The position numbers are program-made. From positions 1,216,001 through 1,280,000 of the forward strand of contig CAVRJY010000001.1 in the NCBI GenBank assembly GCA_963721805.1: DNA of 64,000 nt, in the 5' to 3' direction. Position 1 is the first letter of the stretch, and every line of letters begins with the position of its first letter. This document shows, piece after piece, positions 18,001-24,000 of this stretch. This DNA is from Nitrospirota bacterium (GTDB taxonomy: Bacteria > Nitrospirota > Thermodesulfovibrionia > Thermodesulfovibrionales > JdFR-86).

Positions 18001-21000
18001 TCGATATCAGCGTCAAGACCGTCGTCGCCCACCAGTCGAACATCTCCGAGAAGCTCGACCTGCATACGCGCGCCGGGCTCATAAAATACGCCTTCCAGCA
18101 CGGCATAGTCAGGGCCGAATCGTGAGAGGCAGGATGCGTGGGGGCAAGGGTGTGAGAACCTCTTGAAACGAAAAGGGTTTGCGATCTCTCGCAAACCCTT
18201 GGTATTAAGTGCCCCCTGCAAGGCTCGAACTTGCGACCCCAGGTTTAGGAAACCTGTGCTCTGTCCAACTGAGCTAAGAGGGCTCAGCAGATACTCTAAC
18301 ATGACGGCGTGAGCCCAGTCAAAACACCGCGATTCCCTCCTCGCCGCGCACTGATAACGCGCTTCAGCCACCCTGAAAATAATATTTCAAGCGATTGAAA
18401 ATAGGCTATTAACATTTTCCTTGCTTTATGAGATAATTATTAAATATTATAGTGCGAAAGCGCACTTAGCTAAGTTTTATGGCTTATTTACGCGGAATTA
18501 TTCACATAACGAACATGGAGGGTCAGTATGGAGGAAAAACCAGGCAGGCCGTTTGGCGAACTCTACGACTCATTGATCCAGCGCGGCGTGACGCGCCGGG
18601 ACTTCCTGACGTTCTGCAGCACGATGGCCGCGGCCCTGGCGCTGCCGGCCGGTTACGGCGCGACAATTGCCGAGGCGCTGGAGAAGGCAAAGAAGCCGAT
18701 CGTCGTCTGGCTCGAGATGCAGGCCTGCACCGGGGATACAGAGTCCCTGCTTCGGGCCACCAAGCCCGCGGTCGGAGAGCTGCTCCTTGACATCATCTCC
18801 CTGGACTACGCTGAGGTGATCATGGCCTCGGCCGGTTTCCAGGCCGAGAAGTGCCTCTCCGACGTGGTCAAGAACGAGAAGGGCAAGTACATCTGCATCA
18901 TCGAGGGCGCGATCCCGCTGGCCGAGGGCGGCATATACGGCACCATCGGCGGCAGGACAATGGTCGATATTGCTAGAGAGGTCAGCGGCAGCGCCCTGGC
19001 CACAATCGCTGTCGGCAACTGCGCCTGGGACGGAGGAATACCCGCGGCCCAGCCTAACCCCACCGGCGCGGTGGGGGTCAAGGACGCCGTGAGCGGCATA
19101 ACGCTGATCAACCTGCCCGGCTGCCCGATGAACGGAGAGAACCTTACGGCAGTAATCGTGCACTTCCTGACGTTCGGCACCCTGCCGGTCACCGATACCT
19201 TTGGCCGCCCGCGCTTCGCATACGGCAAGCGCGTCCATGACAACTGCGAGCGCCGCGCGCACTTCGACGCCGGGCAGTATGTCCGCAGGTGGGGCGACGA
19301 AGGCCACCGCCTCGGCTGGTGCCTCTACGAGATGGGGTGCAAGGGGCCGGACACCTTCCATAACTGCCCTATCGTCAGGTGGAACGGGGGCACAAGTTGG
19401 CCGGTGCAGTCCGGCCACGGCTGCATAGGCTGTGCTGCGCCTCACTTCTGGGATACGATGACTCCGTTCTACCGCAGGCTGCCCAAGGTGCCGGGCTTCG
19501 GCATCGAGACCACGGCCGACAAGATCGGCCTCGGCGTGGCTGCCGCGGCCGCCGCGGGCCTCGCAGCGCATGCCATAACCAGGGCGGTAAAGGGCGGTTA
19601 CAAGCCCGAGGAACATAAAAAAGAGGAGGATAAAAAATAATGCCGAAAATCGTAGTCGACCCGATCACGAGGATCGAGGGACATTTGAGGATCGAGGCGC
19701 AGGTCGATGGCGGTAAGATCGTCGACGCGTGGGCCTCGTCCACGGCATTCCGCGGGATAGAGATCATACTGAAGGGCAGAGACCCGCGCGACGCATGGGC
19801 CTTTACCCAGCGAATATGCGGGGTCTGAACGACCGTTCATGCCACCGCATCCGTGCGATGCGTCGAGAGCGCTTTAAACATAACGATCCCCGATAACGCG
19901 AGGGTCATACGCAATATCATCAGCGGCATGCAGCAGGTGCAGGACCACATCATACACTTCTATCACCTGCATGCCCTTGACTGGGTAGACGTCGTCTCCG
20001 CGCTCAAGGCCGACCCGGCCAAGACCTCCGCGCTCGCCCAGTCGATCTCCGACTGGCACAACTCCAGCGCCGCGTATTTCAAGGGAGTGGCGGCAAAGCT
20101 CACCGAGTTCGTCCAGCGCGGCCAGCTCGGCCCGTTCGCGAACGCATACTGGGGGCACAAGGCCTATAAGCTCCCGCCCGAGGCGAACCTGATGGCCGTG
20201 GCTCATTATCTCGAGGCCCTCGAAATTCAGAAAGACATCATCCGCCTGCACGCCACCCTGGGCGGCAAGAACCCCCACTTGCAGACGTACGTCGTTGGCG
20301 GCATGGCGTGCCCGATCGATCCCAACAGCCAAAACGCGATCAACGCCGCGAGTATCCAGTTCATGAAGGATCTTTCCGCGAGGGCCACCGCGTTCGTCGA
20401 GCAGGTATACATCCCTGACCTGCTGGCGGTGGCCTCGTTCTACAAGGACTGGGCCGCGATAGGCGAGGGCGTGGGCAACTACCTCTCAGCCGGCGACTTC
20501 CCCATGGACGGCCTGCCCAACAGCACGAACAACTGGCTTCCGGGCGGAGTGATCAAGGGCAAGAACCTCTCGAAGGTCGAGACCGTAGATCCCAAGAAGA
20601 TCGCAGAGCACGTCGCCCACTCGTGGTATACATACTCTGGCGGCGACGAGAAGGGCGTCCACCCGTATGACGGCGAGACGAGCCCGAAATATACCGGGCC
20701 CAAGCCGCCATATAAGGAACTCGACACTGCCGCCAAATACACCTGGTCCAAGGCCCCGCGTTACGACGACCTGCCGATGGAGGTCGGGCCGCTCTCGCGC
20801 ATGCTAGTGGCGTACGCACAGGGCCACAAAGAGGTGGTCGAGGTCGTGAACCTCGTCTTAGGAAAACTCGGAGTGGGACCGGCGGCGTTGTTCTCGACTC
20901 TGGGCCGCACCGGAGCCCGTGGAGTCGAGACGCTCGTGATAGCCCGTAAGCTGCCGTCGATGATCGACGAGCTCGCGGCGAACATCAAGAAGGGCGACCT

Positions 21001-24000
21001 CGCTATAGCTAACACGACTCTATGGGAGCCCTCGACCTGGCCGAGCGAGTGCAGGGGGTACGGTTTCCACGAGGCCCCGCGCGGCATGCTGAGCCATTGG
21101 ATCAACATCAAGGACCAGAAGATCGCGAACTACCAGTGCATAGTGCCCGGCACCTGGAACGTCTCTCCGCGCGACGCAAAGGGGCAGCGCGGCCCTTACG
21201 AGGCTGCCCTGATCGGCACGCCGATCGAGAACCTCGAGCAGCCGCTGGAGATCCTGCGCACGGTGCATTCGTTCGACCCATGCATGGCGTGCGCGGTGCA
21301 CGTGGTCGACGCCCAGAAAAACCCGGTCATCACAGTAAAGGTGAAGTAGGGAAGGAGGACAGACCGTGATTGATAAAGGAAATGGGGAGACCTGCTCCCT
21401 TGCGTCACGCATAGTGTATGTCTGGCAGGTCCCGGTCCGCCTCGTGCACTGGACGAACGTCCTGAGCATCCTGACGCTCTCGGTCACGGGCTTCTACATC
21501 GGGGCTCCGTTCATGCACGCCATCGACACGACTCAAAACATAATGGGCAACATCAGGTTCATCCACTTCACGGTCGCCTACATTTTCCTGGTGAGCGTGC
21601 TGTCGCGCATCGCGTGGTCGTTCATGGGCAACAAGTATGCGAGTTGGAGGACATGGTTCCCGTTTTCGCGGCCTCACCTCGGCGAGCTGTGGAACGCCCT
21701 TAAGTTCTATATCATGATAGGCGGCAAGAAGCCCACCGTGGTCGGCCACACGGGCGTTGCGCTCATCACGTATTTTTTCCTGCATGTGCTGTACGCGCTC
21801 ATGCTTCTTACAGGCTTCGCCTTTTACAGCATGGGCAGGCCCGAAAGTTTCGTGACGTTCCTGATGGGCAGGTGGGTGCTGAACTACGTGAGCCCGCAGG
21901 ACCTCCGGCTTTACCACCACATAACCATGTACGTGATCCTGACCTTCGCGGCCGTGCACGTTTACATCGCGTGGTGGTTCGACCTGATCGAGCGAAACGG
22001 GATAATGAGCAGCATGTTCAGCGGCAACAAGTTCCTGCACGAGGAAGAACGTTAAACTCTCGATCATAGGCATAGGCAATACCCTGCTCAGCGACGAGGG
22101 TGCGGGGGTGCACGCCGTAAGGGCGCTCGTGGAGAGGTACAGCTTCCCCGGAGGCGTCCGGCTGATCGACGGCGGCACGAAGGGGCTCGAACTGCTCTCT
22201 TACGTCGAGGGCGACCACCTGATGCTGCTTGACGCGGTGGACTTCGGCGCTGCCCCCGGCACGGTGCGCATGATCGAGGGCGACGGCATCCACGCGTTTA
22301 TGGACATGAAGTTCTCGGTCCACCAGATCGGGGTGCCGGACCTCCTGTTCGCCGCGATGCTGACGGACGCGCTTCCGAGGGACGTCTGTCTGGTTGGGAT
22401 ACAGCCTCAGTCGCTCGAGGCAGGGCTGGAGCTTACGGACGTGGTGCGTGGTAAAATGGAAGAACTCCTCGGCATGGCCGTGGAGCGGCTCCGCTCGTGG
22501 GGCGTAGAGGTTGCCATCAAGGAGGCGGCTGATGTGTCTTGCGATTCCCTCTAAAGTTATAGAACTTGACGATATGCTCGCTACCGTGGATCTGTACGGC
22601 GCGCGCACCTCGGTGAGCCTGATGCTGATGCCCGAGGAGGTCAGGGTGGGCGACTACGTGCTCGTCCATGCCGGGTTCGCCCTGCAGCGCCTCGATGAGG
22701 CCGCGGCGCTCGATTCGCTCGCGCTGCTTCGTGAGGTTCAGGAGTTCATCGAGGCCGAAGAGGCCGAGGCGCGCGCCTCGGGTTTATTGTGCGGCCCCGT
22801 CCACGAAGGGCCTAAACTGAACTATTTGTAGCGGATCACCTCGAACCGTTCGACGCCGATTTTCTCGTCCTGCCTGATCCCGGCCTTGCGCATCGAGATC
22901 GATATCTGCTGCTGCGCGGTGTCAACCCCTTCGAGGTCTGGAAGCAGCAGCCCCCGTCTGCCCCCCGCCGTTACGATCACCCCGTAGCGCCTGGGGTCAA
23001 GCGCGGAGAGGTCGTCTACGGGCTCGGGCGCCGTGAGCACGTCGACCGAGTAGGTGATCTCGTCGAGTTCATCAGGGGTGACAGGAGTGAAGCGCGGGTC
23101 ACGCGTGGCCGCGCTGATCGCGTTTTCGACGGTCTCATGTGCGACCGAGGCCGTGCAGGGCTGTATGGTGCCGATGCAGCCCCTGAGTTCGCCGTGTTTT
23201 TTGAGCGATACGAAGACACCCGCCTGCCTTCCAGCGAGGTCGCCGAGCCCTTCTTCAGACGGCGTAATCTTCTTGTGCGAGCGGACGTATTCCTCGATGG
23301 TCTTCTTGGCCAGGCTTACGATAGGGTGCATGGCATTTACCTCTTTCTCTTGGGCGGGAGGCGTTATTATTTGCCGCGAATCAGGGCGTACTCAGAAAGT
23401 TCGAACAGGTTGTCTCTTTCCTTCGAGTGCGGGAAGACCGAGAGGGCGGCACGGGCTTCGTCGACGAGCTTGCGGGCGTGTTCGAATGCGGCTTCGAGCA
23501 CCCCATAGCGGCCGAAGAGCTCCTGGATCCGCGCCAGTCCGTTTTCGCCGACGCCGTCCGCGACGATCTTCGCGATCTCGGCCCGTTCGGCGGGGTTTGC
23601 GGCCTGCAGCAGCAGTATCAGGGGCAGGGTGATCTTCCCCTCGCCCAAATCAGTGCCCAGGCGCTTTCCGAACGCGGCCTCGTCGGCCATGTAATCGAGG
23701 ATGTCGTCTGCCATCTGAAAGGCCATGCCGGTCTTGAGCCCGAAGGCCGCCAGCGCCTCTTCCTTCGCGTCCGTGGCGCCCGCTACTATGGCCCCGAGCC
23801 TGCACGCGGCCGAGATCAGCACGCCGGTCTTGGCCGATATGATGGCCAGGTAGTCCTGCTCGGTTATCGCGGTGTCGCCGAGCTTCTGCAGCTGTATGAG
23901 TTCGCCCTGCGTCATCCCGGCGATGGCCGAGGCGAGGATATCGACGATCTTTGTGTTTTTGAAGGTGACGGCGTGGCGCAGGGCGGTGGAATACAGGTAA

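Follow-up and report, generated by a model that had tools for sequence, protein, structure and literature searches.

Introduction

Group 1 uptake hydrogenases, such as those of Allochromatium vinosum (3myr), Salmonella (Hyd-5, 4c3o) and Escherichia coli (Hyd-1, 3uqy), combine an anchored Tat small subunit, a cytochrome b, a HyaD/HybD protease, HypC and a large subunit that extends beyond its DPCxxCxxH motif. They hold a second Cys in the N-terminal motif of the large subunit and a second Cys at the proximal cluster of the small subunit. In the canonical [NiFeSe] enzymes (HysAB; Desulfomicrobium baculatum, 1cc1; D. vulgaris, 2wpn/5jsu), the large subunit is likewise of the [NiFe] type, and its one UGA-encoded selenocysteine (Sec), a nickel ligand, takes the first (terminal) position in the C-terminal motif. 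To our knowledge, natural Se-hydrogenases have been studied structurally and mechanistically only with respect to this C-terminal-motif ligand, and the role of selenium at each individual Ni ligand has been approached so far only through engineered variants of E. coli Hyd-1. In one of these, C79U (Evans et al. 2021), Sec was placed artificially, by UAG-programmed insertion, at the Group 1 ligand position that corresponds to U63 of the protein described below; according to that report (PMC8020662), the variant has 13% of native activity, the best of four Cys-to-Sec variants, a lower KM for H2, and is nearly inactive at 10% O2.

A 2026 study (PMC13582414) describes Sec hydrogenases among the Group 4 energy-converting complexes. 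In these systems Sec occurs only in the N-terminal motif, a single clade includes CxxU and UxxU forms as well as Cys types, a single SECIS-like hairpin with an early apical-loop G lies past the motif, Sec genes co-occur, and some genomes hold tRNA-ReC-like tRNAs. According to the same source, UXXU had previously gone unrecognised and just two CXXU sequences had been reported from Group 1 (citing Baltazar 2011); UXXU is reportedly in print only for Group 4, and N-terminal CXXU in Group 1 is reported to have been noted in 2011. The locus analysed here and its relatives have each of these features, but belong to a Group 1 uptake enzyme. It lies in a 64,000-nucleotide stretch of a Nitrospirota genome of the order Thermodesulfovibrionales (GCA_963721805.1, contig CAVRJY010000001.1, positions 1,216,001 to 1,280,000), hereafter the window, from the first letter of which positions are counted (Table 1).

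Table 1. Features of the hydrogenase operon in the window.
Feature	Position	Strand	Evidence
Hydrogenase small subunit; Tat signal RRDFLTF, hydrophobic C-terminal anchor	18528..19640	+	PF01058, PF14720, TIGR00391 429.8 bits (above cut-off)
GGAGG Shine-Dalgarno, 10 nt before the large-subunit ATG	19625..19629	+	sequence reading
Group 1 [NiFe] hydrogenase large subunit, 569 aa, one UGA read through	19640..21349	+	frame, PF00374, solved-chain matches
TGC, Cys60, first (Ni-terminal) N-terminal ligand; TGA in 33 same-clade UxxU orthologs read	19817..19819	+	assembly sequence, orthologs
TGA, Sec63 (inferred), second (Ni-Fe bridging) N-terminal ligand	19826..19828	+	translation, solved-chain alignment
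SECIS-like hairpin CGCAUC-CGUGC-GAUGCG, 6 bp, 5-nt loop, 17 nt past the UGA	19846..19862	+	folding, relatives
TGC, Cys74; Ala (GCU/GCG) in relatives; product of compensatory 3'-arm change	19859..19861	+	relatives
DPCMACAVH, C-terminal Ni-Fe motif, Cys only	21275..21301	+	translation
C-terminal extension, 15 residues beyond His554	21302..21346	+	solved mature chains stop at matching His
b-type cytochrome, membrane subunit	21366..22055	+	PF01292; TIGR02125 144.4 bits (above cut-off)
HyaD/HybD-type maturation endopeptidase	22108..22554	+	Pfam/NCBIfam profile searches
HypC/HupF chaperone, final operon gene; convergent minus-strand genes follow	22511..22831	+	profile searches

Results

A Group 1 large subunit interrupted by UGA at a ligand codon

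Translation table 11 divides the large-subunit gene between an ORF of 62 aa (19640-19828) and one of 498 aa (19853-21349) that share a frame. With the TGA read as U, they become a single protein with zero further internal stops, the ATG of which overlaps the stop codon of the small-subunit gene (TAATG). The PF00374 match (E 8e-238) runs from residue 38 to 554 across the TGA and takes in profile positions 1-508 of 508. The top solved chains belong to Group 1 [NiFe] enzymes (3myr_B, 1.1e-209; 4c3o_A, 1.5e-200), which we take to be of subgroups 1e and 1d; fold and length resemble those of the A. vinosum, Hyd-5 and Hyd-1 proteins, with full-length E-values of 1e-182 to 1e-209. Similarity to the [NiFeSe] chains is far lower, the best of them, 5jsu_B, being matched at 1.6e-101 in two stretches. 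A preliminary description of this DNA had proposed one Group 1 large subunit formed by UGA read-through and nearer to [NiFe] than to canonical [NiFeSe] chains, and both proposals hold. The protein falls short of the NCBIfam equivalog thresholds for Hyd-1 (631 against 1101) and Hyd-2 (615 against 969) and also of those of the HysA models (NF045518, 407.7 bits against 780; NF033181, 545 against 600).

The N-terminal motif reads R58-I-C60-G-V-U63-T-T-V-H67 (RICGVUTTVH), with one TGA only, and the C-terminal motif D546-P-C-M-A-C-A-V-H554, with Cys throughout. All four metal ligands of RxCGxCxxxH and DPCxxCxxH are thereby present, as three Cys and one UGA-encoded residue. U63 aligns to the second Cys of 'qricgvct' in 3myr_B and 4c3o_A, and this position is Cys in 18 of 18 CxxC loci read; the bridging role of the second N-terminal ligand is given in PMC13582414. 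The single Sec codon thus falls on the bridging N-terminal position, as had been claimed along with a C-terminal motif free of Sec, whereas in HysAB it is the C-terminal motif that holds the Sec, as its terminal ligand. Of the 69 loci read, 66 yielded a C-terminal motif, and none of these has U at the first position (DPUxxC).

The operon and its small subunit

The operon has the components listed above for standard Group 1 systems, including the extension after the C-terminal motif, which is presumably removed by the operon's endopeptidase. The Tat small subunit, cytochrome b and HypC of the preliminary description stand; its HycI protease does not, since the HyaD/HybD models of NCBIfam outscore HycI, and only the superfamily model TIGR00072 exceeds its cut-off. 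The GTG listed as the start of this gene probably lies downstream of the true start, as the product matches the profile only from position 18 onward. No Isp genes occur in the operon. The small subunit departs from the solved enzymes at the proximal cluster, where alignments to 1h2a_S and 8pou_S place C-T-G-D against C-x-G-C; across the whole clade the second Cys of this Fe-S cluster is absent and Asp or Asn stands there. The supernumerary Cys of 8pow_S aligns to Gly, and the small subunit is without the extra Cys that marks O2-tolerant enzymes.

Decoding of the UGA codon

The genome encodes tRNA-SeC with anticodon UCA as well as selB (380 bits), selA (576 bits) and selD (356 bits), each above its own cut-off, and one in-frame TGA each occurs in selD and in an fdh-like gene. 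TGA is a normal stop in the window, since 23 of 52 long non-overlapping ORFs terminate at it. One alternative is that UGA63 is decoded as Cys, by a Cys-charged tRNA of the tRNA-ReC/selC* type or by a near-cognate tRNA, such that the enzyme would be an ordinary CxxC [NiFe] hydrogenase. This possibility is raised for UXXU genes in PMC13582414, and ARAGORN finds Sec-like tRNAs of 95-98 nt with anticodon GCA in two genomes of the same family (one in G002, two in G039), which score 51-67 bits on RF01852. Such decoding is nevertheless very unlikely here. The RF01852 search of the window's genome returned only tRNA-SeC(UCA) and a tRNA-Ser over the cut-off and no tRNA of that kind, although a tRNA gene may have been missed because the genome is 94% complete; among the eight f1 genomes with a UxxU hydrogenase, a single one has such a tRNA.

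Relatives with one and two UGA codons

The order was scanned across 201 genomes, 154 of which match at E<=1e-50; the counts that follow come from the 150 matches listed, 13 others being unlisted. Two TGA codons occur in 76 of the matches listed at 66-78% identity and in 2 at 51-53%, and one TGA in 8 at 67-100% (the window included) and 16 at 50-53%. All 35 of the two-TGA orthologs read are UxxU, and the 33 read at 66-78% identity are RIUGVU without exception, so that the identification of the two-UGA orthologs as UxxU forms is extended by this larger scan. The idea that the window holds the one CxxU member of its clade has to be given up: CxxU is present in this clade in at least 7 further genomes from the order, which belong to family f6; a second, Hyb-type clade (about 50-53% identity) is mostly CxxU; and both CxxU and UxxU are also met with far beyond the order. 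In a scan of species representatives that overlaps the order sample, CxxU and UxxU together were found in at least 118 species genomes under at least 7 phylum labels. The closest named Cys-type relatives bear Geobacter and Desulfuromonas labels.

UxxU and CxxU genes are split by gene callers, and the 498-aa piece stands in protein collections together with two more 498-aa relatives (87% and 84% identity). Such entries would be expected if the TGA were a real stop and the two pieces, of 62 and 498 aa, formed no functional hydrogenase. We consider a broken gene extremely unlikely, however, as the TGA lies exactly at a metal-ligand codon in 51 of 51 Sec-type loci read in the order, and in 118 species-representative loci that partly come from the same genomes. 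The protein sequence is conserved on either side of the TGA (66-78% identity), and the operon's maturation genes are intact. Of the four metal ligands, the 498-aa piece would miss two. The placement of the TGA exceeds chance, the codon being TGA in every Sec-type relative read.

A SECIS-like hairpin maintained by paired changes

The loop of the hairpin past the UGA is C-G-U-G-C, with G at the second position, where the bacterial SECIS consensus also has G (PMC13582414, section 18). Against its nearest kin, the window has three adjacent stem pairs altered on both sides (A-U to G-C, G-C to C-G and C-G to A-U), at the cost of two residues, S70A and A74C. A stem around the same loop forms in 41 of 41 Sec-type sequences of the clade, which are kin and not independent, and its three loop-proximal pairs are standard in all 41, with one one-sided (U-A to U-G) and one two-sided change among them. 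GUG encodes the loop Val in 41/41 Sec types and in 0/12 Cys types. The mean local folding energy is -8.8 kcal/mol for the 41 Sec types and -5.7 for the 12 Cys-type orthologs, again among non-independent kin, and the Cys types also form some fold in this region. In part of the clade the stem is shifted in register and contains a bulged C. When a single register is fixed, the column-wise test is weak overall, with pairing in 83% of cells and a covariation score that 158 of 500 shuffles also reach. The two-sided pair changes alone stand out, at a level reached in 2 of 500 shuffles. Folded alone, the 71-nt stretch is not more stable than its shuffles (z -0.54), and no Rfam family gave a match. The earlier proposal that compensatory changes have preserved the hairpin is thus supported by the stem in every Sec type compared and by the three two-sided pair changes in the window.

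Origin of the CxxU motif

In a 'quick' maximum-likelihood tree of 69 large subunits (LG+G4), the deep nodes of clade 1 are without resolution, and the window lies within starred clades of 2, 5, 11 and 29 sequences in which the remaining members are UxxU throughout. Constraining it to group with the 7 other CxxU sequences of clade 1, a set named once the tree was known, lowers the likelihood by 115 lnL units (p-AU 0.0004). The tree shows that the window's CxxU arose separately from the f6 forms, and, as the window is nested among 28 UxxU sequences, its CxxU is most likely a TGA-to-TGC reversion of the first Sec codon. The converse, that CxxU is the ancestral state kept in the window and that UxxU was gained repeatedly in its relatives, draws on the CxxU of f6 and of most of clade 2, and gain and loss are not separable from trees alone. 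Given the nesting, however, it needs many parallel TGC-to-TGA gains at one codon as against a single loss, and we assign it very little probability. A further alternative is that the organism is truly UxxU and that the TGC stems from a mistake in assembly or consensus calling, or from a minor population variant: the codon is one base apart from that of all 8 family relatives, and none of the public sequencing runs contains this stretch. We regard this as very unlikely: the same lineage has six more, mutually compensating hairpin substitutions a few bases off, so the stretch diverged as a whole, the assembly comprises 9 contigs with a longest of 1,547,165 bases, and CxxU is known from other genomes.

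Discussion

The locus very probably encodes a membrane-bound, H2-uptake Group 1 hydrogenase in which UGA63 is recoded as Sec with the help of the hairpin, and whose CxxU motif came about by reversion from UxxU. The gene product would be the periplasm-facing catalytic subunit of a cytochrome-b-linked [NiFe] enzyme. During its synthesis, the mRNA hairpin may hold SelB carrying Sec-tRNA(UCA), such that Sec is most likely inserted at codon 63. The activity retained by Hyd-1 C79U, with Sec at the equivalent ligand, speaks in favour of this reading. The selenolate would then take the place of the Ni-Fe bridging thiolate and yield an N-terminal CxxU beside a C-terminal CxxC, a geometry predicted from homology to the solved enzymes; any catalytic effect of Sec63 is likewise putative. 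The ancestor of the lineage would have had two Sec codons, the state still found in most of the order, and the first Sec, the terminal Ni ligand, would have reverted while the bridging Sec and the SECIS were retained.

On a broader scale, we tentatively suggest, at somewhat less than even confidence, that Group 1 uptake hydrogenases with N-terminal Sec are a large overlooked class, many of them UxxU, and that the window holds a back-mutant that keeps the bridging Sec. The clade-wide replacement of the second proximal-cluster Cys by Asp or Asn suggests that active site and electron relay may have been retuned together. If this is correct, a lineage that lost its terminal Sec, kept the bridging one and rebuilt the SECIS stem at the price of two residue changes would point to selection on the bridging selenolate rather than on the terminal one. 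The UxxU relatives would in addition raise a question of recoding, as a single downstream SECIS apparently serves two UGA codons, 9 nt from each other, for one terminal and one bridging Sec. Since callers split these genes and the 498-aa fragment stands in collections, hydrogenase surveys of Nitrospirota-, Chloroflexota- and Desulfobacterota-labelled MAGs may miscount or misclassify them. Unlike the engineered Hyd-1 C79U, the natural enzyme has had time for co-adaptation, and together with its two-Se and Cys-only kin in one order it would provide a CxxC, CxxU and UxxU series for the role of selenium at each Ni ligand.

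Results

The gene at 19640-21349 is split under translation table 11 into two same-frame ORFs (19640-19828, 62 aa, and 19853-21349, 498 aa); taking the TGA at 19826-19828 as U joins them into one protein of 569 aa that has no further internal stop. The Pfam model of nickel-dependent hydrogenases matches residues 38-554 across this TGA (E 8e-238), and with the open frame this bears out the preliminary description of one large subunit read through the TGA. The stop codon of the small-subunit gene overlaps the large-subunit ATG. The best solved chains are Group 1 [NiFe] enzymes (3myr_B, 1.1e-209; 4c3o_A, 1.5e-200), followed by E. 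coli Hyd-1 (~1e-182), Desulfovibrio enzymes (~1e-179 to 1e-182) and Hyd-2 (~1e-163), whereas canonical [NiFeSe] chains align in two stretches at no better than 1.6e-101, so that the reported closeness to Group 1 [NiFe] rather than to [NiFeSe] enzymes stands. The protein falls under the NCBIfam equivalog cut-offs for Hyd-1, Hyd-2, NF033181 and HysA. U63 is aligned to the second Cys of 'qricgvct' in the solved Group 1 chains, and alignment offsets equate C60 and U63 with C76 and C79 of E. coli Hyd-1; of these two ligands, the first binds Ni alone and the second forms a bridge between Ni and Fe (PMC13582414). The putative Sec codon thus lies, as first described, on the second N-terminal Cys (RICGVU), and the C-terminal motif is all Cys (DPCMACAVH). 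More than 60% of large-subunit positions match solved chains in the alignment, which already gives the residue placement.

Features of the hydrogenase locus (positions in the window)
Feature	Position	Strand	Basis or description
dCache/HAMP histidine kinase	15545-17473	+	upstream of operon, same strand
LuxR-type response regulator	17466-18125	+	directly upstream of operon, same strand
Small subunit	18528-19640	+	RRDFLTF Tat motif, hydrophobic C-terminal tail, TIGR00391 over cut-off
Shine-Dalgarno GGAGG	10 nt 5' of large-subunit ATG (19640)	+	sequence reading
N-terminal motif of large subunit	R58-I-C60-G-V-U63-T-T-V-H67	+	translation with TGA = U
C-terminal motif of large subunit	D546-P-C-M-A-C-A-V-H554, then 15 residues	+	translation
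Putative SECIS hairpin CGCAUC-CGUGC-GAUGCG	19846-19862	+	begins 17 nt after UGA; comparative evidence
b-type cytochrome	21366-22055	+	TIGR02125 over cut-off
HyaD/HybD-type endopeptidase	22108-22554	+	profile match
HypC	22511-22831	+	profile match

The motif was followed through the order by searching 201 genomes with the window's protein, where 154 genomes matched at E<=1e-50 and 150 matches were listed, with 13 more. Among the 150 matches listed, two TGA codons occur in at least 76 at 66-78% identity and at least 2 at 51-53%, and one TGA in at least 8 at 67-100% (the window included) and at least 16 at 50-53%; the others have no TGA, or a terminal TAA or TAG alone. We read 69 loci, 30 returned by the search and 39 of 40 regions picked to span every class (one, L069, lacks the N-terminal part), and typed the N-terminal motif as CxxC, CxxU or UxxU, where U is an in-frame TGA and C a Cys codon. 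The window's clade (clade 1, 65-78% identity to the window) comprises 33 UxxU, 8 CxxU and 12 CxxC loci, and a second, Hyb-type clade (clade 2, 50-53%) comprises 8 CxxU, 2 UxxU and 2 CxxC; four remoter sequences are CxxC, and none of the 66 C-terminal motifs recovered from the 69 loci carries U. The UxxU orthologs that had been described were recovered, and the window does lie in a mostly UxxU clade, but it is not the sole CxxU member, since seven genomes of another family (f6) share this type.

In a maximum-likelihood tree (quick search, LG+G4, SH-aLRT, U treated as a gap) the window sits inside starred clades of 2, 5, 11 and 29 rows whose other members are all UxxU, and its sister, a UxxU gene from within its family, likewise has the CGUGC hairpin loop. 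When the window is forced together with the seven CxxU rows of f6, a group named after inspection of the tree, the best tree is 115 lnL units worse (p-AU 0.0004). The simplest history would be a UxxU ancestor followed by one TGA-to-TGC change in the window's lineage; deeper in clade 1 the tree leaves open forks, and the order of CxxC, CxxU and UxxU is not fixed by it. In clade 2 (L070-L081) the gene directly upstream of the large subunit encodes an NrfD-like membrane protein instead of the small subunit, a Hyb-like order, and a different 7-bp hairpin (CGCACUG-GCUU-CAGUGCG) starts 10 nt after the UGA. As the basal members of clade 2 are CxxC, Sec may have been gained there independently at the same ligand. 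Two 498-aa proteins of the protein collection, P0003 and P0004 (87% and 84% identity), share its point of truncation and are nearer to the window's gene than any searched genome, which shows that public assemblies contain closer relatives.

The signal for the hairpin downstream of the UGA is comparative, not energetic. An Rfam scan of 19500-21500 at E<=10 returned no SECIS family and only two chance eukaryotic matches, and a single-sequence fold of 19820-19890 (71 nt) was no more stable than shuffles (z -0.54). For the comparison, 72-nt segments starting at the first motif codon were aligned from 41 Sec-type and 12 Cys-type orthologs, all of clade 1. A stem around the common loop occurs in all 41 Sec types through several sequence variants, CAGCUC/GAGCUG, ACCGC-C-UC/GAGCGGU (with a bulged C), ACUGCUC/GAGCAGU and the window's own CGCAUC/GAUGCG; at the three pairs next to the loop every sequence has standard pairing, with one one-sided change (U-A to U-G) and one on both sides. 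The loop Val is encoded by GUG in 41/41 Sec types vs 0/12 Cys types, which use GUA, AUA, GUC or AUU and have weaker, differently centred folds. Mean local folding energy is -8.8 kcal/mol in Sec types vs -5.7 in Cys types, a contrast whose p-value carries no weight because the sequences are kin. Between the window (GCA UCC GUG CGA UGC) and its nearest kin (AGC UCC GUG AGA GCU), three adjacent pairs have changed on both sides without loss of pairing, and the protein has thereby incurred the substitutions Ser70->Ala and Ala74->Cys; this agrees with the claim that compensatory changes preserve the hairpin. In a fixed-register count over the 41 Sec types 83% of cells are paired; the covariation score was reached in 158 of 500 shuffles, and the number of pairs with double changes in 2 of 500, the sole measure to stand out. 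RNAalifold retained only the three invariant loop-proximal pairs, since part of the clade folds in a shifted register with a bulged C. The G at loop position 2 agrees with the bacterial SECIS consensus (PMC13582414, section 18). The putative SECIS at 19846-19862 thus has good but not complete support. A smaller hairpin, UGAAC-GACC-GUUCA (19826-19839), starts at the UGA itself; most Sec types, and some Cys types (UGC AC...GUG CA or UGU AC...GUA CA), form it without mismatch, and it could have a bearing on the first UGA of UxxU genes, 6 nt upstream, or be a codon by-product.

The genome encodes a tRNA-SeC with anticodon UCA together with selA (576 bits), selB (380 bits) and selD (356 bits), all over cut-offs. 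One in-frame TGA each in selD (C1:1484881-1485801) and in a formate-dehydrogenase-like molybdopterin enzyme gene (C2:371754-373790, on contig 2) brings the candidate selenoprotein genes to at least three. An alternative code with TGA as a sense codon throughout was ruled out, as TGA is the commonest stop in the window and closes 23 of 52 long non-overlapping ORFs. UXXU genes have been linked to Sec-like tRNAs that insert Cys (PMC13582414), which raises the question of whether UGA is read as Cys in the window's family. Sec-like tRNAs of 95-98 nt with a GCA (Cys) anticodon do occur in 2 of 11 family genomes, one in G002 (L220, C2:51094-51184) and two in G039 (L221 and L230), scoring 51-67 bits on the tRNA-Sec model and resembling the tRNA-ReC/selC* type; however, G039 has no match to the window's hydrogenase, only 1 of 8 family genomes with a UxxU gene has such a tRNA, and RF01852 detects none in the window's genome, where its second hit is a tRNA-Ser. 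tRNA-SeC(UCA) itself is found in 9 of the 11. The survey thus does not suggest a general Cys reading in the family, although it is weak evidence, because metagenome-assembled genomes often miss tRNA genes. Among public sequencing runs, the window's stretch was matched by two DNA runs, with only 0.06 of sampled words, and by no RNA run.

A scan of species-representative genomes for TGH GGN GTN TGA ACN ACN GTN CAY returned at least 120 loci. By flanking translation, at least 118 of the matches listed are hydrogenase large subunits (at least 61 CxxU and 57 UxxU), 115 recognised by a tally script and three, with '...DAPT(F/Y)(T/A)QR(I/F)', added by eye; two of the 120 listed, titled Joostella and Mycolicibacterium, were chance matches. 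Labels among the matches listed include Chloroflexota (at least 47) and Nitrospirota (at least 42), with Thermodesulfobacteriota or 'delta proteobacteria', Rokubacteria/Methylomirabilota, Spirochaetota, Nitrospinota, Acidobacteriota and one 'Proteobacteria' also present, and the genomes are metagenome-assembled by title, a few titles being silent. On these matches, predicted N-terminal Sec in Group 1 is common in uncultured anaerobes, and the window is one member.

From its predicted anatomy, the operon would encode an H2:quinone oxidoreductase that is bound to the membrane and faces the periplasm. Its described Tat small subunit, cytochrome b and HypC were recovered, but the protease is not HycI proper. 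The two-component genes at 15545-18125 could regulate the operon; downstream lie convergent, unrelated genes (AMMECR1, polyprenyl synthase, an IF-2B-family protein and Nramp). Near residue 65 the small subunit has CTGD opposite CTGC of 1h2a_S and 8pou_S, and in the window and loci L021-L089 the proximal-cluster motif is C-x-G-D/N in contrast to C-x-G-C in solved Group 1 enzymes. Asp or Asn occupies this position in 38/38 readable Sec-type small subunits of clade 1. Of the 120 small-subunit relatives nearest to the window's in the protein collection, 118 have D, N or E there and two do not fit the motif pattern; among CxxC orthologs, CxGC is retained in four from genus g19, and D is found at three other loci. 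The pattern points to a 3Cys+Asp/Asn or [3Fe-4S] proximal cluster across the whole clade, and our literature search found no report of an Asp-ligated proximal cluster in hydrogenase small subunits. Sec-type loci have a small-subunit gene immediately before the large subunit; four CxxC loci of clade 1 (L059, L060, L063 and L068) do not.

Discussion

Our findings confirm the observation made in the preliminary description and support its interpretation, with the corrections given here and with Sec insertion as a prediction from sequence. In the natural [NiFeSe] enzymes studied, Sec takes the first position of the C-terminal motif (PMC13582414, PMC8020662), and substitution of the bridging Cys is mentioned as 'purported examples' (PMC8020662). 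Engineered Hyd-1 C79U retained 13% of native H2-oxidation activity, the highest of four variants, with a lowered KM for H2, and was nearly inactive at 10% O2 (PMC8020662). In the sections of PMC13582414 (September 2026) consulted, CXXU, UXXC and UXXU are described in Group 4 only and UXXC and UXXU are called previously unrecognised, while Baltazar et al. 2011 is credited with N-terminal CXXU in two sequences of Group 1 and one of Group 3, so the caveat that this motif had been reported in Group 1 before was well placed and CxxU in itself is a curiosity already known. In the consulted part of a 2026 review of selenoproteins in prokaryotes (PMC13188914), the only [NiFeSe] hydrogenases named are the F420-reducing and Mvh/Vhu types, all of which have UxxC in the catalytic subunit and are said to occur in sulfate reducers and methanogens alone; PMC4959059 concerns formate dehydrogenase only. 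Literature searches found nothing on Group 1 UxxU hydrogenases, though the PMC13582414 supplements and Baltazar 2011 may already include some Group 1 sequences with N-terminal Sec. Three points go beyond the literature found: the probable origin of this CxxU enzyme in a di-Sec ancestor, through reversion; how large and widely distributed the predicted Group 1 CxxU/UxxU class is; and a putative SECIS that appears to have been rebuilt in the window's lineage.
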